Positions 33,367 through 49,641 are shown, counted from the first letter of the stretch. The stretch is 64,000 nucleotides of DNA from Candidatus Paceibacter sp. (GCA_020724905.1 DYGB01000002.1:29425-93424), one strand, 5' to 3'. The notes: a model not told the origin generated them from the sequence alone. Translations and numbers: made by a program.

Positions 33367-33411
33367 ATATATAATTGTATCACAGAATTCTCTCTAAAAC
33401 TTATCACGAAG

Positions 33412-33436
33412 TGGCTGGCGTTCTCGTGTTAGAACC
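33412..33436 (+). repeat. degenerate copy of the tRNA-Gln 3' end (att-like direct repeat A)
   Basis: TGGCTGGCGTTCTCGTGTTAGAACC matches the reverse-complemented tRNA-Gln 3' end (49568-49592) at 18/25 and repeat B at 19/24. Confidence 0.5.
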
Positions 33437-33623
33437 AATCTATCTGCAAGTCAGGTAATGTTTATTTACCACTCCCTTATTGCATCATGTTGACCCTCTT
33501 TGGGCGTATTGAAAAAGTGACAAAAGTGACAGATTTTTAGAGAAAAGTACAGTTAACTATTATTCATTTTTTGGTATTTATAATAATAAAAGGAGTACAT
33601 TTTTGTACTCCTTTTCTATCTTA

Positions 33624-33995
33624 CTACAATACTCCTTTTACTATATATGTTGGATATGAGATATCCCATCCAACAAATCCATTCCCAAAAAGTTTTTTTA
33701 GTGTATCAGTCATTTCTTCAAAATAATCATTATATCGCCTCCTTCCCAGTTTCTCCTTTTCTTGTGGTGAGTTATCGAGGGGGTCGTCAACTGTGAAGGG
33801 AGCAAGTACAAACCCTATTCCATGTTGATCTTTAGAAACTTTTCGGACATAAATTTCTAAATATTCACCATGTTTTCTTAAGATGTCTGAATCTTTCTCC
33901 CATTCTTCAGCAAGATCCAAAAGTTTTTTGAGAGAGACTTTTTTGTCAGAAAATTTCCATATTCCTGTTACCCAAAACTCTTTTACTGCTGGCAT
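33624..33995 (-). CDS. hypothetical protein
   Basis: Start at ATG 33995 preceded by an AAGGAGG RBS; no family recognised. Confidence 0.5.
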   Translation of the reverse strand: MPAVKEFWVTGIWKFSDKKVSLKKLLDLAEEWEKDSDILRKHGEYLEIYVRKVSKDQHGIGFVLAPFTVDDPLDNSPQEKEKLGRRRYNDYFEEMTDTLKKLFGNGFVGWDISYPTYIVKGVL

Positions 33996-34111
33996 AAAAA
34001 ACCTCCTTTTGAAAATGAAATAAAAAATAAATGAAATGAATGTAAAAGAACGAAACACTACATAGTGTGTAGTGTTTATATAGTAAACTCTATATTGCCA
34101 TTAGTCAATAT

Positions 34112-34723
34112 CTACTTTTGAACAAAGAAATAGAGCCAGTGTGTTTTTCTTTCGTCATTCTCTACATGTGTCCCCTGTTCTAAAATAGTAAAGTTATTAA
34201 CTTCTAATATTTTTTTGAATTCTTCTTGGGTGTAGAAAGAGAAATATCGTTCAATACCACCCATTTTTTCTTCTTTAATAATGCCTTCTTCAAGTATCGT
34301 TTTTTCTTTTATAGAGATAAAACCAACCCCCTTTTCTTTTGTTATCCTATATATTTCTTGCAGTACAATATTTATTTCTTTTTTTGGAACATGCAAAAGA
34401 CTCGCTGCTGCCCAAAACCCATCAAAGGTATTATTTGGAAATTCAAGAGTATAAAAATCTATTTGTTTAAAAGTACCTTTTGGAACCCTTTTTTGTGCGA
34501 TAGTAAGCATTCCTTCGGAAGCATCAATTCCTATATATTTATATCTTTCTGCAAGTTGTTCCCCATCTCTTCCTGTTCCACATCCAATGTCGATGATTTT
34601 TCCATGTGATATCAGATTTTTAAATGTTTGTATCTGATCAACCCAAAATAACTCCGCGTTTCTTTGATTAAACTCTTCTGCAATTTTGTTATAAGTGTTT
34701 TTTGTTTTTTCTTTGTGGTTCAT
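34112..34723 (-). CDS. class I SAM-dependent methyltransferase
   Basis: Motif I IIDIGCGTGRDG; small-molecule MTase fold. Confidence 0.75.
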   Translation of the reverse strand: MNHKEKTKNTYNKIAEEFNQRNAELFWVDQIQTFKNLISHGKIIDIGCGTGRDGEQLAERYKYIGIDASEGMLTIAQKRVPKGTFKQIDFYTLEFPNNTFDGFWAAASLLHVPKKEINIVLQEIYRITKEKGVGFISIKEKTILEEGIIKEEKMGGIERYFSFYTQEEFKKILEVNNFTILEQGTHVENDERKTHWLYFFVQK

Positions 34724-34732
34724 ATTATATAT

Positions 34733-35125
34733 TTAATCCTTTTTAATCTTAGGAATATACTCTCTTGATATTTTACGAACCTGTATTTTCTCTATTCCTA
34801 GAATAGTCGCTTTCATAAGACGATGGAGTCCATCAAGGATGAGCCACTTTCCTTTGTTCTCCATAATATCTATTGGGTATGTAAGATCAGCTTCCATTGT
34901 TCTTCTATATTCTTTTTCATATTCTTCTGGATTATCAATAACCTCTTTGGGTTTTAGATTGTATATGTTGTTACCCTCCCAAAGGAAAGGTATATCAAAA
35001 TGCCAAGAAAGTTCTTGAATATCCATATCTTCGATAGGAACATCAAGTTCCCAGACTTTTCTCTCATCCCATCTAAAATCAAAACCGACATCTTTTATAA
35101 TTTGTGGAATTTCTTTTTGGTTCAT
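34733..35125 (-). CDS. hypothetical protein with ParB/Srx-like motif (LILDGLHRL)
   Basis: DGxHR-type motif near the C-terminus; 9-nt gap to the downstream MTase. Confidence 0.35.
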   Translation of the reverse strand: MNQKEIPQIIKDVGFDFRWDERKVWELDVPIEDMDIQELSWHFDIPFLWEGNNIYNLKPKEVIDNPEEYEKEYRRTMEADLTYPIDIMENKGKWLILDGLHRLMKATILGIEKIQVRKISREYIPKIKKD

Positions 35126-35185
35126 GTTGAATAAATCTCTAAAATATGAATCTTATCCTTTCTATTGTCTTCTTTGTTGCTTACA

Positions 35186-35554
35186 CTAATTTCTTACTGC
35201 TACAACATCTATCTCTAAGCTTGCTCCTAAGGGTAATGCGTTAACTTCAATTGCTGTACGAACTGGGAGTGGATGTTTAAAATAATGTAAGTATATTTTA
35301 TTAAGATTAGAAAGATCTTTTAGATCAGTTAGATATAGCTGGACTCTGATTATATCATCGAGGGTAAGCCCAGCTTTTTCTAATAAATTCTTTATATTTG
35401 AAATAATAATATCAAATCTTTCTTCTATAGTGTCTCCCGCCAAATGATCTGAAACCATATGGATTTGCCCAGAAAGAAACACTAAACCGTTTACTTCACA
35501 AGCTCCCGAAAGTGGCGCCCCTGTATCCTGTGAAGATTTATATACTTTTTTCAT
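35186..35554 (-). CDS. ridA: RidA/YjgF-family reactive-intermediate deaminase
   Basis: 122 aa; ...GQIHMV...RVQLYLTD...RTAIEV... typical of YjgF/RidA. Confidence 0.75.
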   Translation of the reverse strand: MKKVYKSSQDTGAPLSGACEVNGLVFLSGQIHMVSDHLAGDTIEERFDIIISNIKNLLEKAGLTLDDIIRVQLYLTDLKDLSNLNKIYLHYFKHPLPVRTAIEVNALPLGASLEIDVVAVRN

Positions 35555-35573
35555 GTACAGATTATACCATAAA

Positions 35574-36269
35574 TTACCTCGGATGTTTTTTCCGAAAATC
35601 TAGAATAAGCAATATAATGCACCATATAGCTACTATCGAAAGCTGAATCATTAATTCCGTCATTCCTCCAGACGTAACTATTGTAAGAGCATCGCTACCG
35701 ATAGAATATACAATAATTCCAACAAGAAAATTCCAGAATAACACGGCAGTAAACGAAGTAATGAAAAATTTTCTAAATGGCATATTTAAGATCCCCGCGG
35801 CTGTGTCTGTAAGGGCGCTCATGCTTGGGAGCCAGTAACTTCCGAAAATAGCCGATGATCCATGTTTGAGAAGTTTTTCTTTAGACTCTTTAATAGATGC
35901 TTTGAGTCCGAATTTTATAAGTAGTTTATGCCATCCATATTTTCCTAGTATATAATTTGCAAGATGTGCGCACATAAGACCGAGTGTACCAATGCATATC
36001 CGTATAAGTGCATCTGAAAGAGAGTTAGCGCTTGCTACGCTCACAAAAATAATGAACACCCCTGGGAAGTATCCGCCAAATAAAAGCATACCCTCAATAC
36101 ATGCGCTTATGAATATAATAATGAGCCCATAAGAATCAAACCATGTGTTGATATGTTCTGTGAGTATTTCTGTGGAAGGAAGATCAAAAAGCCTCCAAGC
36201 AATAAAAAGAGAGAGAAATGTAGCAAGTAGACTAAGGGGTAAGGATAAAAGCTTGAGATAGTATTTCAT
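35574..36269 (-). CDS. DedA/TVP38-family membrane protein
   Basis: Polytopic; GGYFPGVFIIF and SYWLPSMSALTDTAAG motifs resemble DedA. Confidence 0.65.
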   Translation of the reverse strand: MKYYLKLLSLPLSLLATFLSLFIAWRLFDLPSTEILTEHINTWFDSYGLIIIFISACIEGMLLFGGYFPGVFIIFVSVASANSLSDALIRICIGTLGLMCAHLANYILGKYGWHKLLIKFGLKASIKESKEKLLKHGSSAIFGSYWLPSMSALTDTAAGILNMPFRKFFITSFTAVLFWNFLVGIIVYSIGSDALTIVTSGGMTELMIQLSIVAIWCIILLILDFRKKHPR

Positions 36270-36934
36270 TTATTTATTTTTTTACCACTGTGTTGAGGTG
36301 TATATAGTAGAAAAGAATCCTTGTTTTCCTTTGTTTCAGCCAAAAGAAATTGTTCATCAGTTATTGTTCTTGTTTTATACCCGTCGTAAGAAAGACTCTC
36401 TTCTATCTTTGTTAATATAGATTGGTATTTTTCTGATTCCCAGTGGGGAATGATAGAGGTATCTATCATATTTAGTCCCTCATATATTTGTATCGGTGCA
36501 ACAGAAGGGTCGTCTGCAGAGTCAAAGTATTTTAATGTTGGACCAAGAACTATAGCTCCGGCACTATCTCCTCCAACAACAATACCTTCCTCTAGTAATG
36601 CTTTAATCATACCATCAAGTCCACTCTCCTTTAGTGAATATCGAAGCATAAAGGTGTTTCCTCCGTTAAACCACAGAACATCAAATCTTTTTAGGGTTGA
36701 TTCTAGTTCGTTATTATTTTTATAGAAGTTTCTCAAATCTATTTCTTCTACATAAGAGACAATATCTTTAAAGTATAATATCAGCTCTTTTGATTTTTCT
36801 AATCGTTCCTTATCTGGTTTATCATCTTTTGCATTAAGAATAAGGCCTAATTTTATTTTATCTTTGGGTTTATTTATAAAACGTAGGAATGTCTCTACAT
36901 CAGGTATTCTGTATGAAGAAAGGTATAATTTCAT
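36266..36934 (-). CDS. peptidase S51 (dipeptidase E / cyanophycinase-like)
   Basis: FNGGNTF and GGDSAGAIVLG motifs. Confidence 0.7.
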   Translation of the reverse strand: MKLYLSSYRIPDVETFLRFINKPKDKIKLGLILNAKDDKPDKERLEKSKELILYFKDIVSYVEEIDLRNFYKNNNELESTLKRFDVLWFNGGNTFMLRYSLKESGLDGMIKALLEEGIVVGGDSAGAIVLGPTLKYFDSADDPSVAPIQIYEGLNMIDTSIIPHWESEKYQSILTKIEESLSYDGYKTRTITDEQFLLAETKENKDSFLLYTPQHSGKKINK

Positions 36935-36938
36935 AGGT

Positions 36939-37688
36939 TTACTTTAGTTTAAATAAAAATCCATTCCTACTCCAAAACCATAGAGGGGAATGCATGTCTA
37001 TTGGATCTATTCCACTTTTATTTAAAGCCGTTCTCCATTTTTCTGATATATCTTCTCTTTTTAGTTCACTCCCCTCTTTTTCTGTTATTATGCCGAGTTT
37101 TATAGAACATTTTATTATATGTGTATCAGGTGCTATTTCGATCTTATCTCTATTTTTTAGATGTAGGCCGCAATAAGTATCAAGGATAAATGCCCAATAA
37201 TTAAATATTTTAGGACCGGAGAGATACGGGAATTCTTTCTTATGTTTGATTTGAATTTGGTTTTTCAGTGTTAGGAAATCACCTTGTGTTTCTTTTATTA
37301 AATAAGAAAAAGAACCCCAATTTTTTTCTACTGCCTTGGTAATGGATATCCAGGTATCTGTATGCTTATTTGGTTGAAGTGCTAGTTTGTGTTTCAAAAG
37401 AGCTTTCTGGATTTCTCTTCTTTTCTTTTTCTTTATATTTTTTATCTCGAATATAAATTTTGTTGACTTATCATTGTATGTTTTTAACGCAGCCTCCCAA
37501 AGATCATAACTGTTTCTTTGATAATTAAGTGCCATCGGTAACGTGAAATAGGCAATTTTATCTTCCAATTCATTTTTTAAAAATCTTGGATGAGAATCTT
37601 CTGGCATTATTGTTTTTCCCAAATCACCCCTTTTGAATGCCTCTATAAGGATGTGGCATCTATTTTGTAACAATGAGTTATTCTTCAT
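36939..37688 (-). CDS. hypothetical protein (possible HhH-type DNA glycosylase-like)
   Basis: 249 aa; weak resemblance (FPYLSGPKIFNYWAFIL) to HhH glycosylases; not confidently assigned. Confidence 0.35.
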   Translation of the reverse strand: MKNNSLLQNRCHILIEAFKRGDLGKTIMPEDSHPRFLKNELEDKIAYFTLPMALNYQRNSYDLWEAALKTYNDKSTKFIFEIKNIKKKKRREIQKALLKHKLALQPNKHTDTWISITKAVEKNWGSFSYLIKETQGDFLTLKNQIQIKHKKEFPYLSGPKIFNYWAFILDTYCGLHLKNRDKIEIAPDTHIIKCSIKLGIITEKEGSELKREDISEKWRTALNKSGIDPIDMHSPLWFWSRNGFLFKLK

Positions 37689-37692
37689 TTGG

Positions 37693-38238
37693 TTATAATA
37701 GATTCAAGATTTCTGGGAATTCTTTTCCACAAAAATGTCCTTTATCTGAGTATTCGTGGTACGTGGCTTTTGGGAGAGATTTTTTTATTATCTCGAATGA
37801 TGTTAATAGATCCGGAGAGTCGTCTGATGATATAAATACGTGAATCGTGTTAATATCCTGAATGTTAGAGTTTATCGAAAAGTTAAAAAAGTCAGTCGTT
37901 AGTTCGTTTTCAGGATCTAGCCATGGGGCAACAAGGATTATTTTTTCCACCTTAATGTTTGGGTTTTCTGAGAAGAATCGTAGTAAAAACCCGCCTCCAC
38001 AACTGTGTCCGATAACTATACTATTTTTTTCTAATGATTGTTGCTTAAATACCTCAAGCCAATTCTCATATAAAGGATCAAATGGTTTTGGGTACTCAAG
38101 TGCTTGGCATAAACCGTTCTTGAGAGCTATTTGTTTTTGTAACCATGGAAACCAATTTGTATTTGATGGGGATGGTTTTTCTGTTTTATAAAACTCATCT
38201 TTATATGGGGATCCGTGTATAAGTATGGTTTGATTCAT
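37693..38238 (-). CDS. alpha/beta hydrolase, YdeN/RBBP9-like serine hydrolase
   Basis: GHSCGG nucleophile elbow; ~180 aa single-domain hydrolase. Confidence 0.65.
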   Translation of the reverse strand: MNQTILIHGSPYKDEFYKTEKPSPSNTNWFPWLQKQIALKNGLCQALEYPKPFDPLYENWLEVFKQQSLEKNSIVIGHSCGGGFLLRFFSENPNIKVEKIILVAPWLDPENELTTDFFNFSINSNIQDINTIHVFISSDDSPDLLTSFEIIKKSLPKATYHEYSDKGHFCGKEFPEILNLL

Positions 38239-38252
38239 GTTGTCTTGTTACA

Positions 38253-38591
38253 TTAATATAATTTTTCACCGTTGGGAACTTTTTTATCAGGTCTTGCTAT
38301 GACAATATCTCCGTCTTTATCTTTAAAGCCCGTAACTAAACATTCAGAAACATATTTTCCCACTTTTTTTGGTGGAAAGTTAACAACGCCGATGACTTGT
38401 TGTCCCAACAACTCTTCTTTTGTGTAATGATGAGTTATTTGACTACTTGACGTTTTTATTCCAAGTTCTTCTCCAAAATCTATTTTCATTTTATATGCAG
38501 GATCCTTAGCCTCAGGAAAATCTTCTATTTCTACAATAGTTCCAACGCGTAACTCTATGTTCTCAAATTCCTCCCAAGTGATTGTTTTCAT
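38253..38591 (-). CDS. csaA: tRNA-binding protein (CsaA/EMAP-like OB fold)
   Basis: 112 aa; LLGQQVIGVVNFPPKKVGKYVSECLV characteristic of the tRNA_bind domain. Confidence 0.7.
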   Translation of the reverse strand: MKTITWEEFENIELRVGTIVEIEDFPEAKDPAYKMKIDFGEELGIKTSSSQITHHYTKEELLGQQVIGVVNFPPKKVGKYVSECLVTGFKDKDGDIVIARPDKKVPNGEKLY

Positions 38592-38606
38592 GGTATTATT
38601 ATATCA

Positions 38607-39266
38607 TTGATGAAGAATAAATTTCCAACCATTATATTCTGGAGCATCATCACGCTACTTCCCATTCTTGGAATAATTTTTGGCATTCTCGATCCAGAAT
38701 CGTTCGAGCATGGGAAGCAATTAGCACAAGAATATATCATTCCTTTTGGTGTTTTTGCTCCTTTTGTGTTTATCTTTATCCAAGCACTTCAAGTTATTAT
38801 CACTCCCATTAGTCACTATAGCGTTGGTATTATTGGTGGGTTTATTTGGGGACCATACATAGGAGGAGTGTTGAATTGGACTGGTCGTATGATAGGACAT
38901 GCAATTGCATTTATTATTGCTCGGAAAATAGGAAAAAAGCTTGCTTTGAAATTTGTAAGTTCTCAACAGATAGAGAAATATGACAAATATGTTTCTAATA
39001 AATCTCTATTTCTATTTTTGTTTTATTTTCTCCCTCTTTTTCCTGATGATGAATTAAGTTATCTTGCAGGACTTTCAAAAATGAAGGCAAAATCATTTAT
39101 TGTTGCAAATATATTTGGGCATATTGGCGGAAGCTTTAGTCTTGCATATATTGGGGCTGGAATAGATGAGTACAATCCATTTTTCTGGATATTAATTACT
39201 CTCACTTTAATTGGATTTGTTATGTTTTGGTTTGTGGTAATTAGGAATAATAGGTCATTTGAATAA
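38607..39266 (+). CDS. TVP38/TMEM64 (DedA-related) membrane protein
   Basis: Polytopic; conserved ...DDELSYLAGLSKM...FIVANIFGHIGG region. Confidence 0.65.
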   Translation: MMKNKFPTIIFWSIITLLPILGIIFGILDPESFEHGKQLAQEYIIPFGVFAPFVFIFIQALQVIITPISHYSVGIIGGFIWGPYIGGVLNWTGRMIGHAIAFIIARKIGKKLALKFVSSQQIEKYDKYVSNKSLFLFLFYFLPLFPDDELSYLAGLSKMKAKSFIVANIFGHIGGSFSLAYIGAGIDEYNPFFWILITLTLIGFVMFWFVVIRNNRSFE

Positions 39267-39303
39267 AATAAAAGCGCAGATATATTATCCACGCTTTTTT
39301 GCG

Positions 39304-39708
39304 TTATTTCTTCAAGGAATCAGGTAATAGACAAGTATGTGAATCCCAAATCCATATTCTTTTCTTGTTCAAATTAAATACTTTACTAAAGAAACCGCAT
39401 ACGAGTTGACTTTCCGGCTCCTGATCTAATTCAAATTGAATTGAGTTTAGTTTGGTAATGGGGATTGGATTTTCTTTCATATCTAGATATTCAACATTTC
39501 TCAAAATGAAATGTGTGGTGGCTACTATGTCAACTATATCCCCAACCTTAATTTCCTCTATTGTGTTGGTGAGCGTTGCACAAATACGCTTGTAAGGTCT
39601 TGGTACTTCCTCTCTGGGTAATTGTGCTTCTGATATTATGACGATGCTCTCATCATATTCTAGTCTTTCGTTTCCGAAATAATCATAGAAAAACAATTTG
39701 TCTTTCAT
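39304..39708 (-). CDS. hypothetical protein
   Basis: 134-aa ORF; no family recognised. Confidence 0.4.
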   Translation of the reverse strand: MKDKLFFYDYFGNERLEYDESIVIISEAQLPREEVPRPYKRICATLTNTIEEIKVGDIVDIVATTHFILRNVEYLDMKENPIPITKLNSIQFELDQEPESQLVCGFFSKVFNLNKKRIWIWDSHTCLLPDSLKK

Positions 39709-39773
39709 AAATCCTCCTTGATTTTTATTGTGCTATATATTCTATATCATATATGAACATCCTTGTAAATCTA

Positions 39774-40232
39774 TTACAAAAGTTGTTTATCAAGCGGTGG
39801 GTCTGAGAAATATGTTCTTACTATAAAACCTTTTTCCATTAATTCAATCATTTCCATGTAAGGTCTTTTTATAAGCAGAAATTGTGGTTGGGGAAGATAT
39901 TTCTTTTTAAAGTCTTGATAATTAGAAACAGTAAAGTCCGCGTCCCCTCTTTCTGGTTTGGTTACATCAGGAACCCTTATCTTGAGAATTTTTAATATTC
40001 CAGCATTAGTTTCTATATCTCTAATATGATATATATATCCCGATTTTGTTTCTTTTATTCTTTTCCCAATTTTTTTCGTAGCACTTTCCAGTTCTGTATA
40101 TTCAGATTCTGATTGTGAAAATATACACGCATAATTCAAAGATGCATTAACTTCATCTGTGTATTTATCTTTAAGATATGATGCTTGTAAAACTATATTT
40201 TTAACAATGTCTAGTAATTCTTTTTCGTTCAT
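39774..40232 (-). CDS. hypothetical protein
   Basis: 152-aa ORF; no family recognised. Confidence 0.4.
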   Translation of the reverse strand: MNEKELLDIVKNIVLQASYLKDKYTDEVNASLNYACIFSQSESEYTELESATKKIGKRIKETKSGYIYHIRDIETNAGILKILKIRVPDVTKPERGDADFTVSNYQDFKKKYLPQPQFLLIKRPYMEMIELMEKGFIVRTYFSDPPLDKQLL

Positions 40233-40240
40233 ACTATTTT

Positions 40241-40669
40241 TTATTCATCTATTCCCCATTGTACCATTTCTGTGAATCGAATATAGAACCCATGGGGATC
40301 AACAACTCTAAAGTCTTTACTTCCCCATTTCTTTAATGTTAGTTCTTGTGCTATGGGGATTTTTTCTACACTTTTTATAGCTTTCCATAATAGCTCTATA
40401 TTGGATACTGGTATAGTTATTTCAACACCATATCCTCGAGGAGTGTCTTTTGAAATACTTTTGAAATAAGAGTGGCTATATATTTTCTCTGTATTTCCAT
40501 AGAAATTTAGATATGTTGATCCAAGATCATCATTTCTTTCTAGAATGAGGTAATCATTTTTTTCTTCTTTTTCGTTTCTTGCCACAGAGAAACCAAAATG
40601 TGTATAAAATTCAATTGTTTTTTTAAAATCAGGGACGTGGAGTTCTATAACAAGATTATTTTCCAGCAT
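40241..40669 (-). CDS. VOC-family (glyoxalase/bleomycin-resistance fold) protein
   Basis: LVIELHVPDFKKTIEFYTHFGFSV N-terminal beta-alpha-beta-beta-beta module. Confidence 0.5.
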   Translation of the reverse strand: MLENNLVIELHVPDFKKTIEFYTHFGFSVARNEKEEKNDYLILERNDDLGSTYLNFYGNTEKIYSHSYFKSISKDTPRGYGVEITIPVSNIELLWKAIKSVEKIPIAQELTLKKWGSKDFRVVDPHGFYIRFTEMVQWGIDE

Positions 40670-40795
40670 ATCAGTATTAAGTTTATTATATAAATAGTAT
40701 CACACATTATTTCTTTCAATAACTGTATATGTTGACATATATCCATATATGATGTATCATCTCTTTAGACACATTAATAATACAAGGAGCGTATA

Positions 40796-41341
40796 ATGAA
40801 CATTAAAGAGCTTGCTTCAACTGTTACTCAAACTACTTCGATGTTCCACAGTGTTTCATCGTTTGCAACTCGTGTTTTTGGTCTTCTTCTCGTTTTTCAT
40901 CGAGACGTTCTTAAGATGGAGGAGTGGAGTAAGAAAACTGGTGGATATTTTACTCTTGCTCAGGATGATGGAACTCCTCTTCTAACGTTTCGCATTGGAG
41001 CAGTTATTCCAGAAAAGACAGATAAGTATTTTCATCTTTCTTTGGAAAAAGCCAGACGTCTTGGACAAAACAAAAGTCATGGTTCTAGTTTTAAAAGTCG
41101 TGACGGAAGAAAGAGATGGGGAGGAGCTGTTCGTGGAAGAGGTCTTAATAATATTCTTTCGTTTTCTGGATTAACTGAAGTAGGTGATATGATTCTTACG
41201 TATTTTGTAGCAGAAAAACTCGGTTTTAGATCACCAGAAGAAATCAAAGCTCTTGCCGAAGGTGAAAACTTCTATGGAGAATATTCAAGGTTTAAAGATT
41301 TTATCAGTGGTTTTGAAACAACTTTAGATTTTCTACAATAA
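40796..41341 (+). CDS. hypothetical protein
   Basis: 181 aa with AAGGAG RBS and a TTGACA/-10-like promoter upstream; terminator downstream. Confidence 0.5.
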   Translation: MNIKELASTVTQTTSMFHSVSSFATRVFGLLLVFHRDVLKMEEWSKKTGGYFTLAQDDGTPLLTFRIGAVIPEKTDKYFHLSLEKARRLGQNKSHGSSFKSRDGRKRWGGAVRGRGLNNILSFSGLTEVGDMILTYFVAEKLGFRSPEEIKALAEGENFYGEYSRFKDFISGFETTLDFLQ

Positions 41342-41345
41342 GTAT

Positions 41346-41375
41346 AAGCCCCTAATATTACAGGGGCTTTTTTTA
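41346..41375 (+). terminator. rho-independent terminator
   Basis: AAGCCCCT-aatattac-AGGGGCTT followed by TTTTTTT. Confidence 0.65.
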
Positions 41376-41735: not shown

Positions 41736-41915
41736 ATGAAACAGCAAATTCTATACATTGATCCTGAAATGAATCGTTTAATTGGTTTGTTGGCACAGAA
41801 CGCCACTCTTATTAGTGCGTCGGGGGTAGCTTTTCCAATCCCCTACATAAGAATAGAGAAGCGTCTTTTTCGTAAGTCTTTTAATATTATTTTAAAATTT
41901 TTAGAGACATCTTAA
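41736..41915 (+). CDS. hypothetical small protein (59 aa)
   Basis: ORF with GAGGA RBS 6 nt upstream; it falls below the ORF-track length cutoff. Confidence 0.3.
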   Translation: MKQQILYIDPEMNRLIGLLAQNATLISASGVAFPIPYIRIEKRLFRKSFNIILKFLETS

Positions 41916-41925
41916 TGAAAGGAGG

Positions 41926-42114
41926 TTGATTATGTCTGTTACAGTACCCATTCCTGATTGGATTATACAGACTTTGTTCATTGCATTAATCGTTTGTATT
42001 ATTTGTCTCCTTTTAGTTGAGAGATCAAATGATATTTTTGCTATTATTTTCTATATTTCTCACTTTGTTTGTATAGTTATCGTTGGTTGGCTTTCAAAAA
42101 AAGCTGGAGAATAA
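41926..42114 (+). CDS. hypothetical small membrane protein (62 aa, 2 TM)
   Basis: Strong RBS AAAGGAGG, two hydrophobic helices, terminator immediately downstream. Confidence 0.5.
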   Translation: MIMSVTVPIPDWIIQTLFIALIVCIICLLLVERSNDIFAIIFYISHFVCIVIVGWLSKKAGE

Positions 42115-42129
42115 AATAAAAGCCCCTAA

Positions 42130-42164
42130 ATTAATTATAGAAGGGGCTTTTTATATATTTCCTA
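42130..42164. terminator. bidirectional rho-independent terminator
   Basis: AAGCCCCT...AGGGGCTT hairpin followed by a T-run; lies between convergent genes. Confidence 0.6.
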
Positions 42165-42167
42165 TTT

Positions 42168-42689
42168 TTATGTTGATAGATTTATCAGTACTGAGTTAAT
42201 GAATTCAATCTTTCTTGCATAGTATTTTCTAACACTAATTCCATTTCCAGCTTCTTTTAATTCTTTGTATTCTTTTAATGCCCGTGGATTGGATTTGAGA
42301 TAATTTTCAAAGACCAAACTACGTTGCCAGTCAGGGCTACTTTCATTAATAAGAAATACATCAATGTGTTTTTTGTCTACTTCTGTTGCAAAACGAGCTC
42401 TTTTTAAAGGATATAAACTTTTTGGATTACCGAACAATTCCGTTAAAAGTAGCAAGTGGAAGTCGAAAGCCTTTTTAGAAACTGGGATAAATATGTCAAC
42501 TTCGTCTTGACCCGATATTCCTAAACTAGAGGCACCACAATGTTTTATTTCAACATCTTTAAGTTTCGCTTCTATTACAGATTTAATTTTTTCAAATTTA
42601 TTTATACAGGTCGGGTCAAAAGGAATGATTTTAACTACCTTAGTGTTTGATAAATGGTTAATCCATTGTTTTTGATCTTTGGTAAGCAT
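42168..42689 (-). CDS. GrpB-family protein (nucleotidyltransferase fold, UPF0157)
   Basis: IKHCGASSLGISGQDEVDIFI matches the GrpB IEHIGSTSVPGL..DIDI core. Confidence 0.6.
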   Translation of the reverse strand: MLTKDQKQWINHLSNTKVVKIIPFDPTCINKFEKIKSVIEAKLKDVEIKHCGASSLGISGQDEVDIFIPVSKKAFDFHLLLLTELFGNPKSLYPLKRARFATEVDKKHIDVFLINESSPDWQRSLVFENYLKSNPRALKEYKELKEAGNGISVRKYYARKIEFINSVLINLST

Positions 42690-42767
42690 AGTTAATGTAA
42701 TTGTTCTATTTTTATGCTTTCTCTTTAGTTTTTTTGAACATACTTTTCTTTGTGTAGCTTTTATCGT

Positions 42768-43175
42768 TTATGATTTTAATATTTGTTTTAATTCTTCCAA
42801 AGCTTCATCAAATGTGGACACAACTAGTCCTACTTTCTTAACGAAATTAATAGACCATTTAGGATTCCTATTTTCTTGCCAAATAATAATCATTTTGTCA
42901 CAAAAATCACCCGGTTTTTCTGTGTTATTGGCATAGAAATATCCAATTTCAATCCACGTTGCTTCTGACGGTGCGATTCCTGGATTGGCAATGAGAATGT
43001 CCGCGTTCTTAATTCCATTCAGGTCATCGGGGAAATATGTGTTTGGTGAAGTCTGGTCAGAATCAACCTCCCAATCATAAAAGTCACACTCTTGTACTGC
43101 TTTAAAGGGTTTCTTCCAATTACTATCGTGTTCATTGGATTGACCGGCTAGATAAACTTTTAATTTCTTCTTCAT
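42768..43175 (-). CDS. nucleoside 2-deoxyribosyltransferase-family protein
   Basis: VYLAGQ start, catalytic-type ...ILIANPGIAPSEATWIEIGY region. Confidence 0.6.
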   Translation of the reverse strand: MKKKLKVYLAGQSNEHDSNWKKPFKAVQECDFYDWEVDSDQTSPNTYFPDDLNGIKNADILIANPGIAPSEATWIEIGYFYANNTEKPGDFCDKMIIIWQENRNPKWSINFVKKVGLVVSTFDEALEELKQILKS

Positions 43176-43192
43176 TCTAACTTTTAAAGTCG

Positions 43193-43750
43193 TTATTTAA
43201 TTATTTCAAGAATAGCTGATAATGCTTCCGGAAGCTTATCAAAACCTGCTGAACCGTTAAGATGCTTTCCATTTGGAATGAGTATGAGTTTGCCACCAAG
43301 TTTTTCAGCTGTTTCTTTTGCATCAGATACCGGAACGAAAGGATCATTGTCTCCGTGTATTACGATCACTTTTGGTGACTTGTTTTTTATCTTCATCCAA
43401 TCAAAATCGTCTAAAAGAAATTCTCGTATCTTTTCATTTTCATTTTGATGACATGGTGCGCTTGCTATAATAACACCTTTTATATTAGGTGAGTCATATT
43501 TTTCAAGATATCGTAAGATTGCTGTTCCACCCAAAGAATGCCCCACTAGATAAATATCATCTTCTTTGTTTTTTGTAATATGTCTTTCTATTTCTTCTAG
43601 CCATTCACTGAGCTTAGGGGCTTGTGGTGATGGCATTGGGAGCGAACAGGCATAAATGTCCTGTTTTTCGAGTTCGCTCATTAAATATGGTCTCCAGCCT
43701 CCATTTGGAGATCCTTCAAATCCATGGATAAGGAATACTTTTTTATTCAT
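43193..43750 (-). CDS. alpha/beta hydrolase, YdeN/RBBP9-like serine hydrolase (paralog of 37693-38238)
   Basis: GHSLGG nucleophile elbow; same 185-aa architecture. Confidence 0.65.
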   Translation of the reverse strand: MNKKVFLIHGFEGSPNGGWRPYLMSELEKQDIYACSLPMPSPQAPKLSEWLEEIERHITKNKEDDIYLVGHSLGGTAILRYLEKYDSPNIKGVIIASAPCHQNENEKIREFLLDDFDWMKIKNKSPKVIVIHGDNDPFVPVSDAKETAEKLGGKLILIPNGKHLNGSAGFDKLPEALSAILEIIK

Positions 43751-43796
43751 ACGTTTAAATTATACCATAAAATTTTACCTAAATAATATGCATACA

Positions 43797-43828
43797 AATA
43801 AAAAGCCGCTCAGATAATCTTGAGCGGC
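43797..43828 (-). terminator. rho-independent terminator (minus strand)
   Basis: GCCGCTCA-gataatct-TGAGCGGC hairpin followed on the minus strand by a T-run. Confidence 0.6.
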
Positions 43829-43838
43829 GACAAGCTTT

Positions 43839-44366
43839 TTATTGTAAACATAAGAAAAAATGAACTTCTACAGAAGATGCATTAACAGTGGCGTAATGAA
43901 ATCTAAATTCTGCAATACCTTTAAAGAATTTGTTGATTTCTTTCAGCATTTTAAAAATTTCTTTTCCACTTTTCTTTCCTTTCGGATTAAAGTGAAAGTG
44001 AAAAATTGGAATGTCAATGTAAGTTCCTTGGGAGTCATTCCAGAACTCATTATAGTCTGAGGCAGTACCATTAAATGGATCTACATAACTACGAATGAAT
44101 AGTTCCAATAGTCGTTTTGTTTTTCCATCTTGACGAGATTTAAATCTCTTATTCAGGAATGCTCGATGTTTTTTGTATCTCTTCGTTTTGGGAATAAGTG
44201 AAAAGAGATGTCTTATTAGCTTTTTAAGCATTCTCTCTTGAGTGTCTGCGATTTTCACCAAGAACGGTTTTGCACGTTCTTGGTTTTCCTTTATTTTACC
44301 CATTTCTTCTGAAAGTATATCTTTGAAAAATGGATTTTTTTCAGGAATATAGATAAGACGGTTCAT
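43839..44366 (-). CDS. hypothetical basic protein
   Basis: 175 aa, Lys/Arg-rich; no family recognised. Confidence 0.4.
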   Translation of the reverse strand: MNRLIYIPEKNPFFKDILSEEMGKIKENQERAKPFLVKIADTQERMLKKLIRHLFSLIPKTKRYKKHRAFLNKRFKSRQDGKTKRLLELFIRSYVDPFNGTASDYNEFWNDSQGTYIDIPIFHFHFNPKGKKSGKEIFKMLKEINKFFKGIAEFRFHYATVNASSVEVHFFLCLQ

Positions 44367-44736
44367 TCTTATTTCTCCTATGAAGTTGTCAAATACTAGC
44401 TAAAAATAGGATAACATACACAGCAGTATCTGTAAAGGACAAGGAATTTATTTTTCTAAGAACTTTCTTTGGGTTGGCTCTATTTGGCTGGGTTTTTCGT
44501 ATTAGAACTTTATATCTTATCCGCATGTTGAGGATATTTTTCTCTCAGTTTTTCTTTTTCTTCTTGAGAGAGTGACCTAAGTTTAAGACGTCCTCCAATA
44601 TGCTCTGGAAGAGTGAGGTTCTCCGCTGAGGTGAGGGAGTGAAAAGTAAGTATGCCCCCAACCTCCCTTGGGAGCCGTTGGAGAATTTGAAGAGTAGGTT
44701 GATGTTGTTGGATAAGAAGATAATGCTAACTGATTG

Positions 44737-45786
44737 TTAGTTTATCCATATATCAATATTAAGTTTCTGATTAGTAACTTTTTCAAAATAAGTTGCAGCA
44801 ATCGCTATCCCAACAGCACTCAACTGTAACTTATTCATTAAAGTTTTACTAAAGGAGTCAAAAATTTTACTACCTGATTTTGTTTTATTTTTTAAATCTT
44901 CCTCAACTTGCGCTGTAGACGGAATCATTTTTCCGTAAATATCTTTTAATTCTTTCTTGTCTTCTTCACTAAAATTATTCTTATCTAAATAATCTTCTAG
45001 AACTTTTTGGTTTTGTGTTTTTATTACTAAATAATCATCTTCGTTTGTGGTAATAAGCGCTTTTGCTTCATTGGATAGTTTTAATTGATCAATCTTATCT
45101 TTCTCTAATCCTCTCATAAAAGGTAGCGTATAGTTCTTTTGAAAAATCTGAATAAGATTCCTGCTTAAAGCAGAAGATGATGCACATCTTGTATATTCTA
45201 AATATTGAAACTGAGAATTAGTTAAAGATGTTCCAAGAAAAGGAGTCACCATAGTTTCAAGAAAATTATCAAAATCAGCAATAGTATTTACTGGACTATT
45301 TAACGCATATAAACATATAAAAACCATAGCAAGTATATTCAGATGATCTTTAGTCAATTTGTCTGCGGTTTCGATGGACTCGTTAAAAACAATTCTTTTG
45401 ATATCTTCCTTGTCATTAGAAATTCTTTTACCCAAAAGAATGGCGAGGTTCTCATGCAATTCAACTGAGTCACTTCTGCTAGCTGCTAGTGCCGCTTTTT
45501 TAGTGATAAATTGAAAATCTGGACTGTTAATTACACTTTTTACTTCTTCCACATCAGACATGTAAGATTTTAGTTTGTCTTTTAATGCCTCGAGGAAAGA
45601 AGATTGATTTTCTGCGATTTTATCTTTTACAGGTTGGGGCAACTCTCCAAAAACTGAGCTCAGTAATTCTTTGGATAAATCTTCCACAGAACCCACTGTT
45701 AAATTAACTGTCTGATTCACAGCTATGGAATCCGCTTGAATATTAGTGGAATTATCTCTCGTCTTTTGTTTCTTTATCTCTGACAT
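44737..45786 (-). CDS. hypothetical protein (349 aa, helical; N-terminal segment repeats the tail of the upstream small TM protein)
   Basis: Long ORF overlapping the upstream 66-aa TM gene by 35 nt; no catalytic motif recognised. Confidence 0.5.
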   Translation of the reverse strand: MSEIKKQKTRDNSTNIQADSIAVNQTVNLTVGSVEDLSKELLSSVFGELPQPVKDKIAENQSSFLEALKDKLKSYMSDVEEVKSVINSPDFQFITKKAALAASRSDSVELHENLAILLGKRISNDKEDIKRIVFNESIETADKLTKDHLNILAMVFICLYALNSPVNTIADFDNFLETMVTPFLGTSLTNSQFQYLEYTRCASSSALSRNLIQIFQKNYTLPFMRGLEKDKIDQLKLSNEAKALITTNEDDYLVIKTQNQKVLEDYLDKNNFSEEDKKELKDIYGKMIPSTAQVEEDLKNKTKSGSKIFDSFSKTLMNKLQLSAVGIAIAATYFEKVTNQKLNIDIWIN

Positions 45787-45952
45787 TTATATTTAAATTA
45801 TCACTTTGTATGTTTATACTGTTATTTCTACTCCTTTGCTTTTTTATTATTTTATTACCACCCCAAAATAACGTGGCAAATCCAATTAATATACCAACTA
45901 GCGTAAGAAATCCTCCTGCAGTTTTTATATATAAAATTAAATCATCAAACAT
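45752..45952 (-). CDS. hypothetical single-pass membrane protein (66 aa)
   Basis: One TM helix then a basic/Asn-rich tail KKQRSRNNSINIQSDNLNIN. Confidence 0.45.
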   Translation of the reverse strand: MFDDLILYIKTAGGFLTLVGILIGFATLFWGGNKIIKKQRSRNNSINIQSDNLNINVRDKETKDER

Positions 45953-46083
45953 CGTAGTTTTTATATTTTATCAAAAAACTGCCCAGTTGGACAGTTTTTT
46001 GTCTGGCTACAGCTCTCAGCTTATATGCAGTGTCAGAATAGGTTCTTGGGCACACGACCCTCTCAGGTCACTGTGTTTGAAGA

Positions 46084-46107
46084 TACTGGCGTTTCCGTGT
46101 TAGAACT
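46084..46107 (+). repeat. degenerate copy of the tRNA-Gln 3' end (att-like direct repeat B)
   Basis: TACTGGCGTTTCCGTGTTAGAACT matches repeat A at 19/24 and the tRNA-Gln 3' end in the same orientation. Confidence 0.5.
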
Positions 46108-46190
46108 TCTAAGCCATCTGTGGATAAGTGCCTACACTTTCGGTTTCTATTCGTTTATAATATAATTATAGTTAAATAATATTTATAACA

Positions 46191-47762
46191 ATGTCTACTC
46201 TTACAAAAAAACAAAAACAAGTCTTTGATTTTATAAAGAGTTATACATCGGAAAATGGTATCTCCCCTACTATAGAAGAAATCCGTAAAGGATTAAAACT
46301 GAAGGCTGTTTCTACAGTACATGAACATATAAAAACTCTTGAGGTAAAAGGGTTTATTTCAAGAGATGATGATTTTTCTAGGAACTTAAGCATAAAAAAG
46401 AACATTATATCTGTGGTACATATTCCTATCCTTGGTCATATAGCTGCGGGCCAACCAATTGAGGCTATAGAAGATTTTCAGGACACCGTATCTATTGTTG
46501 ATTCAAGAATAAAGAGTTCTGAAGGATATTATGCCCTAAGGGTTGTTGGTAATAGTATGATCGATGAAGGAATTTTTGATGGAGATATTGTTGTTATTAA
46601 AAGACAGTCCGTTGCTGACAATGGACAAACTGTTGTTGCGATAATTGATGAAAATGAGGCAACTCTTAAGAAATTATATAAGGAAAGAAGACGTTTTAGA
46701 TTAGAGCCAAGAAATCCTAATATGGAACCTTTATTTAGAACCCATGTGGAGGTTCGAGGAGTTGTAGTAAAAGTTATTAGTAATATTCAAGATGAAGTTG
46801 AGACAATTGCGAAAACAAAACACGGATTTAGAACATTGGATTTGTTTGCAGGTGTTGGGGGTATACGAATAGGTTTTGAAAATGCGGGGTTTAAAACTGT
46901 ATTTGCAAATGATTTTGAAGAAAAATGTGAATATACGTATAACCTAAATTTTAAAAAAACAAAGCTGGTGGTTGAGGACATAAGGAAAATAGGAATTGAT
47001 GATTTGCCAGAATTTGATTTTTTGTTGGGTGGATTCCCCTGCCAAGCCTTTTCCATCGCAGGTTATAGAGAAGGTTTTAATGATAAAAAAGATCGAGGCA
47101 ATTTATTTTTTGATATAGCAAGGATTATTAAAGCCAAAAGACCCGAAGGATTCTTACTTGAGAATGTTAAGAATTTAAAAAGCCATGATCAAGGAAGAAC
47201 TTTTGAGGTTATAGAAAAAACTTTAAAGGATCTCGGATATCATATTCATACAAAGGTTTTAAACACTATGGAGTATGGGAATATTCCTCAAAATAGAGAA
47301 AGAATTTATATAGTTGGATTTAAAAATAAGAACTATTTCGATAGATTTGAATTCCCCAAACCAATCAAATTAACAAAGAAGGTTGTTGACTTATTAGAGA
47401 AGGATGTTCCTGAAAAATATTACTATAATAACAAACCTCTTTACGAAAGAATAAAAAACGATGTGAAAGATAAAAACAAAGTATATCAATGGAGAAGAAA
47501 GTATGTCAGAGAAAATAAAAGTGGCGTATGTCCCACATTAACAGCAAATATGGGAATGGGTGGACACAATGTTCCAATAATTAGGGATAATAAAGGAATA
47601 CGGAAACTTACTCCATTAGAATGCTTTAGGCTCCAAGGCTTTCCTGAGGATTATAAACTTCCTAATGTTGCTGATTCTGTTTTATATAAGCAAGCTGGTA
47701 ATTCCGTTAGTGTTCCGGTTGTAGAAGCTATAGCGAAACAAATAAAAAAAATTATGAAGTAA
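46191..47762 (+). CDS. LexA repressor (wHTH + S24 autopeptidase) fused in-frame to a DNA cytosine-5 methyltransferase
   Basis: Residues 1-200 align along the whole E. coli LexA (LTKKQKQVFDFI; cleavage site IAAGQP; LRVVGNSM Ser; TVVAIIDENEATLKKLYK Lys). Residues ~205-523 carry C5-MTase motifs I DLFAGVGG, IV GFPCQAFS, VI ENV, VIII QNRERIYIVGF, X GNSV. The ORF is continuous. Confidence 0.8.
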   Translation: MSTLTKKQKQVFDFIKSYTSENGISPTIEEIRKGLKLKAVSTVHEHIKTLEVKGFISRDDDFSRNLSIKKNIISVVHIPILGHIAAGQPIEAIEDFQDTVSIVDSRIKSSEGYYALRVVGNSMIDEGIFDGDIVVIKRQSVADNGQTVVAIIDENEATLKKLYKERRRFRLEPRNPNMEPLFRTHVEVRGVVVKVISNIQDEVETIAKTKHGFRTLDLFAGVGGIRIGFENAGFKTVFANDFEEKCEYTYNLNFKKTKLVVEDIRKIGIDDLPEFDFLLGGFPCQAFSIAGYREGFNDKKDRGNLFFDIARIIKAKRPEGFLLENVKNLKSHDQGRTFEVIEKTLKDLGYHIHTKVLNTMEYGNIPQNRERIYIVGFKNKNYFDRFEFPKPIKLTKKVVDLLEKDVPEKYYYNNKPLYERIKNDVKDKNKVYQWRRKYVRENKSGVCPTLTANMGMGGHNVPIIRDNKGIRKLTPLECFRLQGFPEDYKLPNVADSVLYKQAGNSVSVPVVEAIAKQIKKIMK

Positions 47763-47768
47763 GTTTTT

Positions 47769-48818
47769 CTATTTTTCTGTTTTATAGAATTTATCAAACT
47801 CTTTGATCATTTTATTCGTAGAATCTTTAGCAAATATCTCAAAAGAGTTCTTTATCGCTAGATTCTCATTCCAACTTGAGCTTCTTTTAAATTCTGAAAG
47901 CTCTACTCTTACATAACCTGGGGACACCTTCTTTCCGTTAATAGAAATAGACCTTGGGGTTTTTAAATAAAAAGACCCTTTGTTTTGTTTAATGATTGTA
48001 ACTTCTTTTAAATTACCTTCAATAGCAATTGGTAAAAATTTAGAGTCACGAAAATTATAAGTGAATTTCTTGTTCTCCACTCTTATAGGTTTGCTTTTCC
48101 CTGCCCTTACTACTTTATTTACATTTGAGACACTTTTTACATACCATGGGCTAACCTTTGGCTTACAGGATATAGTATGTTCCAAAATTTGGTTTTTAGT
48201 GTATGTACCTATTAATCTGAAACTTCCTATGGTTTTTGCTGGATGGGGTTCTTCTGGATTTATAATGTTTGAATTCTTATCTGATTTTATAAAGATGGGG
48301 TTAATCTTTAGTAAGTCTAAATTTTTTGGATTAAAAACTTCTTTATCAAAAATAGTAGTTAAATAATCTGGGGATAGATCAGATTCAACGAAAACATAGA
48401 AATCATCAATCATTTGTGGTTGCCTGACTCCCATTAAGTATTGTCCTTTTCTAAATACTTTAACTTCTACTCGAGGACGTTTTTTTATAGTTTCCCATTT
48501 CCCATCGTTGTATTGAACAAAAGGGATTATTCTTCTCTTATCCTTTATCCCAATAACATCTGGCGCATTTTTTTCTGATGAATTGTTGTACAAGAAATAA
48601 TCAGGAATAACACTATATGGTTTATCTTTAAAAAGAACGTCAAAAACGACAGTTTCAGCAAGCTTATTAAGCCACCGTTCGATAAATCCTCCGATTAAAT
48701 CTCTTTTAGAGGAAGTCCCTTGGAGATGAAGTGAATCGGAGTTATATTTCATTAATATGAAATATATTGTTCTAATCAGTTCTTCTTTTGTTACTTCTAT
48801 TTTGGGATATTTACTCAT
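47769..48818 (-). CDS. putative Type II restriction endonuclease (PD-(D/E)xK-like), cognate to the adjacent C5-MTase
   Basis: 349-aa ORF convergent and 6 nt from the MTase stop; PDVIGIKDKR...VEVKVFRK resembles a D...ExK core; no other family. Confidence 0.5.
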   Translation of the reverse strand: MSKYPKIEVTKEELIRTIYFILMKYNSDSLHLQGTSSKRDLIGGFIERWLNKLAETVVFDVLFKDKPYSVIPDYFLYNNSSEKNAPDVIGIKDKRRIIPFVQYNDGKWETIKKRPRVEVKVFRKGQYLMGVRQPQMIDDFYVFVESDLSPDYLTTIFDKEVFNPKNLDLLKINPIFIKSDKNSNIINPEEPHPAKTIGSFRLIGTYTKNQILEHTISCKPKVSPWYVKSVSNVNKVVRAGKSKPIRVENKKFTYNFRDSKFLPIAIEGNLKEVTIIKQNKGSFYLKTPRSISINGKKVSPGYVRVELSEFKRSSSWNENLAIKNSFEIFAKDSTNKMIKEFDKFYKTEK

Positions 48819-49064
48819 TAAGATAGAGCATATACCCTTATTGACATAAAATCAATTTAGCAGTAAAGAATCACCTTCTTTAAAGTATGCATGGGCAGTA
48901 TAAATGACTTGCTTCCGTTTTGTTTTACGTACTCATATTAAACCTATTCTATCTTTAACAAGCTCTAGGGGTTGTAAATTAGTTTGTCCGTTCGGAATTA
49001 TTTGAGTGGTAAACAAATTATCCCTTCCCTAATTCATATTACCATTAATAAAACCAGCAACAGT

Positions 49065-49529
49065 TTATGTTTCTTCTATGATTTTTTTAACAACTTTTTT
49101 GGATATGTTTAATAAGGGGCTGAGATTCAACCAGTATTTTCCATCTTCGCGTTGAGAAAGTATCTCTAATTCACCAAAACCAATTCTTAGTCCAATCCCA
49201 ATTTCCATGTAACTATTATGAGTAAGTTTGTTCCTATATCCATTTCTTAGTGTTTCGACTTGGTCATTTGAAAGACTCAGATTGTAGTAACTAGGATCAT
49301 TCAAAATTTGGAAATGTGTCTTTGTATCATTCCCACCTCCTTTTATAATACTACCAATATTGTCTACTATTGAAAGAAGAATTAACGCCGATGGATATCC
49401 ATAACATCCAGTATATCCATTCCAGCGAGGATCGGAAGATTTATCAAAATTTATACAATATTCCGCAACTTCAATCAGCTCTTTTAGAGCTTCCTTCTGC
49501 ATCTCTGACTTTGATAAATGAAGTGCCAT
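49065..49529 (-). CDS. hypothetical protein
   Basis: Start placed at Met 49529. The longer track ORF (to 49649) is read-through across the tRNA-Gln gene. Confidence 0.45.
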   Translation of the reverse strand: MALHLSKSEMQKEALKELIEVAEYCINFDKSSDPRWNGYTGCYGYPSALILLSIVDNIGSIIKGGGNDTKTHFQILNDPSYYNLSLSNDQVETLRNGYRNKLTHNSYMEIGIGLRIGFGELEILSQREDGKYWLNLSPLLNISKKVVKKIIEET

Positions 49530-49567
49530 ATTAACGTATCTCGTGTAGGATTGTTCCTTGCACGACT

Positions 49568-49641
49568 TGGCTGCCGGACTAGGATTCGAACCTAGATACC
49601 ATGCTCCAGAGGCATGTGTCCTGCCATTAGACGATCCGGCA
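49568..49641 (-). tRNA. tRNA-Gln (anticodon CUG), CCA encoded
   Basis: Cloverleaf: acceptor UGCCGGA/UCCGGCA with U1:A72 and G73 (GlnRS identity elements), D-stem GUCU/GGAC, anticodon stem CAUGC/GCAUG with loop CUCUGGA, T-arm CUAGG-UUCGAAU-CCUAG. Confidence 0.85.

Follow-up and report, generated by a model that had tools for sequence, protein, structure and literature searches.

Origin of a low-GC region at the 3′ end of tRNA-Gln(CUG) in Candidatus Paceibacter: a probable decayed array of site-specifically inserted elements

How did some 16 kb of low-GC DNA come to lie against the 3′ end of a tRNA gene in a member of the Patescibacteria? The window analysed here is a 64,000-nucleotide stretch from Candidatus Paceibacter sp. 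(GCA_020724905.1 DYGB01000002.1:29425-93424), in which GC content falls from 0.38-0.39 to 0.32-0.33 across about 33.4-49.6 kb. A first-pass annotation had placed tRNA-Gln(CUG), the presumed integration target, at 49568-49641 on the minus strand, a call on which ARAGORN and Rfam (RF00005, 59.6 bits) agree, and had attributed the adjoining DNA to successive integrations into the tRNA end by elements, now decayed, that left attachment-site (att) remnants behind. Our analysis leads to a similar answer: we consider it likely that 33.4-49.6 kb is a decayed tandem array of elements that entered by site-specific recombination at the 3′ end of tRNA-Gln(CUG). The region adjoins the tRNA 3′ end and has conserved chromosome on the opposite side, where the prfB-ftsE-ftsX-truB synteny beside tRNA-Gln is kept in three loci of relatives (L005, L014 and L016).

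A blind repeat search of 32-51 kb returned as its top family, D1, four 28-mers in one orientation: r1 (33408-33435), r3 (44481-44508), r2 (46079-46106) and the tRNA 3′ end (49564-49591). All three internal copies are intergenic. The first-pass annotation had reported r1 and r2, which are present where it put them and match each other at 19/24 as it said, but had missed r3; three internal copies imply three modules rather than two, here termed A (46107-49560), B (44509-46078) and C (33436-44480), all on the minus strand. Nor are the copies simply degenerate tRNA 3′ ends, as had been proposed. Each consists of a conserved element-derived arm (GTTCTAAYACGRRAAMSCC), a short core common with the last ~8 nucleotides of the tRNA, and a trailer. 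The core GCCAGCCA is the counterpart of the tRNA's GGCAGCCA, and within the window r1-r3 are degenerate direct repeats.

The best-preserved distal att junction is r1 (33375-33438, minus strand; nhmmer and three-genome alignment A3), which reads GGTTCTAACACGAGAACGCCAGCCA followed by CTTCGTGATAAG... and in which the partner switch GCCAGCCA, discussed below, corresponds to plus-strand TGGCTGGC at 33412-33419. An inverted repeat, CACGA(G)-N13-TCGTG, forms an imperfect dyad around the switch point. The minus-strand remnant r2 (82% identical to r1) has an r1-type arm and a degraded core in which CCA has become TAT, and r3, also on the minus strand, is a third att junction remnant with the sequence AGTTCTAATACGAAAAACCCAGCCA. 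At the tRNA itself, the 3′ end GGCAGCCA (plus strand TGGCTGCC; 49568-49575, minus) constitutes the proximal att junction. It lies within an attL-like junction (49533-49594, minus) composed of the 3′ part of the tRNA and a trailer (AGTCGTG...CACGAG) that departs from the relatives after 7 nucleotides; nhmmer detected this junction with the repeat model at E=3.4e-10, and still at E=5e-9 when window sequences were excluded from the model. We also considered whether r1-r3 could be pseudo-tRNAs, and rejected this reading: Rfam gives no tRNA there even at E<=1, and the r1 arm, by inspection, can neither make a T-arm nor pair with the 5′ acceptor strand of the tRNA. No match of r1-r3 to Rfam or to any other structured RNA was found.

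A comparison of the repeats with background, which the first-pass annotation had called for, gave a divided result. Over 25-mers, r1 matched the tRNA at 18/25 and r3 at 20/25, while r2 matched the tRNA at only about 13/24, so that the ~72% similarity to the tRNA end claimed for both copies holds for r1 and was overstated for r2. With the tRNA 25-mer as query the best non-self match in the window was r1, but its 18/25 was reached by 4% of 300 dinucleotide shuffles, and the 19/28 match of the r1 28-mer to the tRNA by 10% of shuffles. When the r1 28-mer was the query, r2 matched at 23/28 and r3 at 21/28, and none of 400 shuffles reached 21 (maximum 20). Since r2 and r3 beat all 400 shuffles, the r1/r2/r3 family stands well above chance; the in-window resemblance to the tRNA is near chance, and the tie to the tRNA end therefore rests on comparative data. 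A profile trained on L013a, L013b and L009_r only, all from other genomes, found r1 at E=3.7e-10. A second profile, of seven copies from other genomes of which two were the true tRNA ends of L003 and L005, ranked r3 third (E=0.27) and missed r2 (E=18).

The window itself corresponds to contig Ga0246236_1000152 of JGI metagenome 3300029893. The comparative data come from loci whose TruB, TypA and ASCH homologues are labelled Paceibacteria or Patescibacteria by their sources: L003 (NPIE01026612; TruB 96% identical in amino acid sequence), L005 and L006 (from Logan; TruB 86%) and L013 (TypA 92%). By blastn, L003 matches window positions 50165-49561 at 97.5% and 34725-33362 at 96%. Between these blocks L003 has 2.7 kb of unrelated genes (open reading frames, ORFs, of 427, 175 and 180 amino acids) where the window has 14.8 kb, and only the distal 1.3 kb of module C (33362-34725) is common to both. 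L005 and L006 likewise match the window as far as base 49561, beyond which they carry an island with HTH_17, a type I restriction-modification (R-M) system, a 145-amino-acid ORF and a 441-amino-acid large serine recombinase (LSR); no protein of the L005 island has a homologue in the window. Three genomes thus have three contents starting 7 nucleotides past the tRNA, and gene content at this locus, a comparison that had been suggested as a check, is not conserved.

At the distal end, alignment A3 shows the window and L003 near-identical up to ...GGTTCTAACACGAGAACGCCAGCCA (...AACGCCAGCCA) and diverging thereafter, while L003 and L013 are unrelated before GCCAGCCA and about 94% identical beyond it. 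The change of partner at GCCAGCCA is the signature of site-specific exchange, and r1 is a recombination junction. The three contents at 49561 and the switch in r1 together bear out the proposal of successive integrations at the tRNA end. The r1 copy of L003 repeats 29-31 nucleotides of that genome's tRNA end and trailer (CAGCCAACTCGTGAYAGGTCTCAAAGAGG). The same stretch is found in L013 (4087-4116, 30/30 identical to L003 593-622), where it sits upstream of a SET gene and is preceded by a different arm than in L003; this L013a left arm (GGTACGGTACCGTGACAGCC) indicates that more than one element family uses the site. The right side of a second L013 copy (8505) is 79% identical over 111 nucleotides to the left end of the L003 island, and we therefore regard it as an attP-like junction.

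Relatives also offer a candidate for the recombinase, whose gene is absent from the window. The L005 LSR has Resolvase, Recombinase and Zn_ribbon_recom domains, matches the SPbeta YokA and TP901-1 integrases, and has 13 relatives in IMG/VR at 59-81% identity. In one IMG/VR contig, L026, 117 nucleotides separate the end of the LSR gene from the 3′ end of a tRNA-Gln(CUG), which is flanked on its other side by a gene whose end resembles that of CTP synthase (read from the translated sequence), and the DNA between tRNA and LSR gene is 80% identical to L005 3198-3272. Module B begins with a homologue of this left terminus of LSR-bearing elements, directly tRNA-distal of r2 (45964-46051, minus; TTCTGA..GCATA..GCTGAGAGC.GT..AGACA, then a terminator hairpin). 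Here window 45995-46041 matches L005 3199-3245 at 78.7% over 47 nucleotides (E=3.5e-5, blastn), and in the three-way alignment A4 this stretch beside r2 lines up with the termini of L005 and L026. An r2 arm followed by an LSR-type left terminus is what a tandem array predicts, namely a right arm and then the next left arm. At the opposite end, L030 (IMG/VR; LSR 77% identical) carries GGTTCTAGCTCGAGGAAGCCAGC at its far end in the expected orientation, and upstream of it TGAATAATAGT and TGTCACTTTTGTCAYTTTTT, collinear with the right-terminal region of module C (33436-33600, minus; TGAATAATAGT ... TGTCACTTTTGTCACTTTTT ...; alignment A5). This alignment makes homology between the module C terminus and the L030 element end suggestive, not conclusive. 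Terminase-like, ParB-MTase (methyltransferase) and VRR-NUC genes are present in L030 and L026, and the active relatives accordingly look like prophages. That modules without a recombinase lie at a tRNA where relatives carry an LSR element agrees with the earlier view of the elements as decayed. Judging from these relatives, the balance tips slightly towards a phage-type LSR of the same family as the recombinase behind the junctions. A stretch past the LSR gene (CTAGTCCCGGCTGCTA), considered as the distal junction of the L005 island, scored no better than shuffles and was dropped.

These features can be assembled into a likely mechanism. An incoming element would bring an attP in which a short core separates an r1-type arm from a left arm. 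A newcomer would recombine at or beside the terminal GGCAGCCA of the tRNA, restore the tRNA and displace earlier elements outward, and such displacement would give r2, r3 and r1 their three parts: right arm, core, and either the next left arm or an old trailer. Repeated events would pile up modules A, B and C, which would afterwards lose their recombinase and any phage genes. The surviving cargo, which comprises a methyltransferase module, one gene of the LPO_1073 family and about 18 small genes of metabolic or unknown role, would be either fixed or open to mobilisation in trans alone, and ordinary deletion and replacement would have shaped the modules further. Signs of decay include a truncated gene fragment abutting r3 and the loss of CCA from r2; the order of insertion and the present immobility of the modules are what we infer from this scheme.

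Several observations weigh against an array built by site-specific recombination. The ORFs of 33.4-49.6 kb gave no match to an integrase or recombinase family, as the first-pass annotation had also remarked, and the region is for this reason filed as a decayed or integrase-less array. The suggested search for relatives with truB directly beside tRNA-Gln/ASCH yielded no such empty site (truB-tRNA-ASCH) among those examined, and a TruB search of the genome contig collection found no relative. (ASCH was rejected as the chromosomal flank of an empty site: its homologues, 60-80% identical and widespread in Paceibacteria, lie in unrelated, variable neighbourhoods.) The region is poorer in GC than the core, but GC at third codon positions (GC3) is 0.255 in island genes versus 0.271 in the core, so codon usage does not flag the island genes as foreign. 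Neither r2 nor r3 is significant under the model made without window sequences. The L003 direct repeat exceeds in length what remains after integration by classical LSR systems, although SCCmec/Ccr-type and Dehalococcoides elements do have repeats of 15-20 bp. The window/L003 breakpoint at 34725 falls at the start codon of a SAM-MTase gene and lacks an att copy; some of the flux must therefore have another basis than site-specific recombination. The window-L030 similarity is weak (20 nucleotides at 95%, E=0.017, blastn), the distal junction of the L005 LSR island was not found in a locus that ends inside the island, and exact-pattern scans of IMG/VR for the r1-type arm and the L005 trailer found none. 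Element-terminus models recovered little besides their own training sequences, and two matches to the r1-type arm pattern in the genome contig collection, in Phascolarctobacterium and Burkholderiaceae, were taken as chance.

It is also conceivable, though unlikely, that classical tyrosine integrases made the islands and were later lost, the LSR elements of the relatives being unrelated users of the same hotspot. The 29-31 nucleotides identical between tRNA end/trailer and r1 in L003 are typical of tyrosine-integrase att cores, the deviating L013a arm speaks for more than one element family at the site, and the window has no LSR. However, only LSRs, and no tyrosine recombinase, occur in the loci examined at tRNA-Gln; moreover, the DNA beside r2 matches an LSR element terminus, and the LSR contig L030 has an r1-type arm at its far end. 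We give markedly less credence to a hypervariable accessory zone moulded chiefly by homologous or illegitimate recombination between strains, in which the att-like repeats would be old relics that do not explain present differences. Such a zone would accommodate the repeat-free breakpoint at 34725, the core-like GC3, and a variable block at 27961-33366 that lacks an att copy in the window, but the 49561 breakpoint, seen in three genomes, and the r1 switch both coincide exactly with the att core, a precision not expected of general recombination placed by chance.

Two readings deny that the repeats are recombination sites at all. The inverted repeat in r1, and the position of r2 85 nucleotides upstream of a LexA-MTase gene, could point to regulatory sites, either operators of that LexA-domain methyltransferase or terminators. 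This is highly improbable, as r1 and r3 are not beside the LexA-MTase gene, r2 and r3 have an imperfect palindrome or none, and the motif occurs at homology switch points and by tRNA-Gln among unrelated genes. Chance similarity in AT-rich DNA would account for an r1-tRNA match that 4-10% of shuffles attain, and the other repeat families (3 copies, 71-77%) do look like noise; it is effectively refuted by the failure of all 400 shuffles to reach the r2 or r3 scores, by the detection of r1 with an independent model and by the comparative junction evidence. An integron-like attC cassette array was likewise dismissed, there being no integrase and only three sites in 16 kb, flanking multi-gene modules; by inspection r1-r3 do not fit what we take to be the attC R''/R' consensus.

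Traces of insertion at this tRNA extend beyond the close relatives. L009, a distant Paceibacterota metagenome-assembled genome (MAG), has tRNA-Gln, one 169-amino-acid gene and then an r1-type copy; its tRNA trailer (GTTATCGCGCACGAG) matches that of L005. r1-type arms are thus found in L009 and L013 as well as at the far end of L030. In L014, a distant Paceibacteria MAG (TruB 42%), a 14-nucleotide exact repeat of the tRNA-Gln 3′ end (AAGTCCCGCAGCCA) lies at 17757-17770, 165 nucleotides downstream of the tRNA end, and is followed by an R-M module. L016 (TruB ~42%) has, by eye, a pseudo T-arm/acceptor 3′ half at about 12838-12863, ~50 nucleotides past tRNA-Gln. Att-like duplicates or LSR elements occur at tRNA-Gln(CUG) even in lineages with TruB only ~40% identical. 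A broader proposal, which we regard as speculative and rather doubtful, is that the tRNA-Gln(CUG) 3′ end is a lineage-wide gene-capture platform of Paceibacteria, where a family of LSR prophages inserts and arm-bounded integrase-less modules, down to a single gene as in L009, are still moved in trans by those LSRs; if true, this would give organisms with very small genomes a cassette-like means of exchange. The LSR family and the reconstructed attB and attP (attP = GGTTCTAACACGAGAACGCCAGCCAACTCGTGATAGGTTATCGCGCACGAG) offer a testable pair, and the r1-type arm a marker for locating accessory DNA in Patescibacteria MAGs. Separately, the 25.6-kb contig IMGVR_UViG_3300014205_009253 carries two LSR genes (L020 and L024; 74% and 60% identical to the L005 LSR) in the same orientation ~17 kb apart, which could represent a tandem pair of elements; neither a tRNA nor an att copy was detected on this contig.

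Patescibacteria have tiny genomes and few recognised mobile elements; at this locus about 16-22 kb beside one tRNA turns over between near-identical strains. Genomic islands of the kind represented by this array are well known, but the host (Patescibacteria, candidate phyla radiation) is an unusual one, and a full-text literature search found no paper on tRNA-linked islands in Patescibacteria. The accretion of integrative elements and cis-mobilizable elements (CIMEs) provides one parallel, with integrase-less, att-bounded DNA in tandem at one site; the modules here share this organization, but their att sites are degenerate. The L005 recombinase resembles the SPbeta SprA/YokA, TP901-1 and A118 class in having three domains and in lying at the element end beside the attachment site. 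As a rule, textbook LSR phages insert into protein-coding genes and no more than 2 bp of identity remains; here the target is a tRNA 3′ end and the shared core is longer. The LSR is, besides, a feature of the relatives, not of the window.

The closest counterparts are the Dehalococcoides ssrA islands and the Prochlorococcus tycheposons. The former are tandem, low-GC islands downstream of one small-RNA gene, with 20-bp direct repeats of the gene 3′ end and, immediately upstream of these, a conserved element motif that does not align with the RNA gene; their integrase is a serine recombinase, and some islands without an integration module are proposed to be cis-mobilizable or fixed (McMurdie et al., 2011; PMC3146451). 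Tandem low-GC modules, an RNA-gene 3′ target and an element arm before each repeat are common to both systems. Here, however, the target is tRNA-Gln(CUG) rather than tmRNA, crossover is at the extreme 3′ end (discriminator/CCA) rather than in the T-loop, the six-gene integration module (DsiB/DsiA etc.) is missing from the window, the repeats are far more degenerate, the host belongs to the Patescibacteria, and the related active elements look like prophages with terminase genes; given the tRNA target and the missing DsiB/DsiA module, the ssrA islands are an analogue only. Tycheposons integrate at tRNA genes of a streamlined host, newcomers pushing older elements inward, and their islands contain scattered degenerated remnants and partial tRNAs; a minority use large serine recombinases (Hackl et al., bioRxiv 10.1101/2020.12.28.424599). 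Successive tRNA integrations in a streamlined genome, with remnants left, are again the likeness. Most tycheposons differ from the array described here in having tyrosine recombinases and replication modules, and the window holds no intact element.

The flanks have GC contents of 0.393 and 0.378, the three modules 0.320-0.330. Module C (11 kb, GC 0.327) holds about 18 cargo genes, mostly on the minus strand (Pfam/PHROG/NCBIfam): those for a 175-amino-acid protein, two Ser_hydrolase proteins (PF06821), a deoxyribosyltransferase-like protein, GrpB, VOC, two VTT (VTT/DedA) proteins, a CsaA-like tRNA_bind protein, a 249-amino-acid protein, S51, RidA, a ParB/Srx-like protein of 130 amino acids, a SAM-MTase and a 144-amino-acid protein. 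Pfam thus confirms the gene list of the first-pass annotation, except that the deoxyribosyltransferase match lies under the Pfam cut-off. In module B (1.57 kb, GC 0.330), a 66-amino-acid ORF (45752-45952, minus) accompanies a gene for an LPO_1073/Vpar_1526-family protein (44737-45786, minus; NCBIfam NF045477, 4.2e-57; phrog_19542), and an unannotated C-terminal gene fragment (44509-44644, minus) has its stop codon directly beside r3; by blastn it shows 76% DNA identity to the 3′ end of an L013 gene that is full-length there (563 amino acids). Exact-sequence look-up of the LPO_1073-family protein and of the 144-amino-acid ORF gave no record. NF045477 and phrog_19542 are phage-occurring families, and the 130-amino-acid ParB/Srx-like protein (34733-35125, minus) matches phrog_17560, a family found in phages; both matches fit a phage-derived origin of the modules.

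Module A (3.45 kb, GC 0.320) comprises a 154-amino-acid ORF (49065-49529, minus), a 349-amino-acid ORF (47769-48818, minus) and a C5 DNA methyltransferase gene (46191-47762, plus; Pfam; PADLOC MTase_II, 2.4e-126). The methyltransferase of the R-M system reported earlier is therefore supported, but its restriction enzyme would be the 349-amino-acid ORF by position only, and this ORF has no family or PDB match. The methyltransferase, of type II, is fused to a complete LexA (DNA-binding domain and S24 autopeptidase). A second fusion, of LexA to an N6/N4 methyltransferase, is encoded in the L014 R-M-like module directly downstream of tRNA-Gln (19233-20687, minus). The domain composition suggests control of modification linked to the SOS response or to autocleavage; a full-text literature search found no paper on LexA-methyltransferase fusions.

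Beyond r1 lies a second variable segment (27961-33366, minus; blastn and gene lists), which is separate from the array and has a core-like GC of 0.374. It encodes ASCH, CsoR, DUF411, a membrane protein, a CopA-type ATPase and an MliC-domain protein. In L013 the whole segment is replaced by SET-GT2-563aa-MFS-Exo_endo_phos-epimerase, bounded by two att-like copies (L013 4067 and 8505), and homology resumes at window 27960 (blastn); the variable zone is thus wider than the low-GC island. No further att copy was found in the window across this segment.

On the conserved side of the tRNA, TruB (49695-50627, minus) is fused to a C-terminal acylphosphatase domain, a fusion kept in many related Patescibacteria (matches down to ~36% identity). 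Release factor 2 (52363-53508, minus) is apparently split between two ORFs that overlap (53026-53508 and 52363-52881), an arrangement expected from the programmed +1 frameshift of prfB; in its listed form the upstream ORF overruns tRNA-Thr(CGU) (53450-53523, minus), and the true start lies further in. A TraG/VirD4-like coupling ATPase (DUF87, T4SS-DNA_transf; 54220-56475, minus) belongs to a block that is syntenic in the distant relatives L014 and L016 (DUF8128 + DUF87), and its gene appears to belong to the core genome and not to a mobile element.

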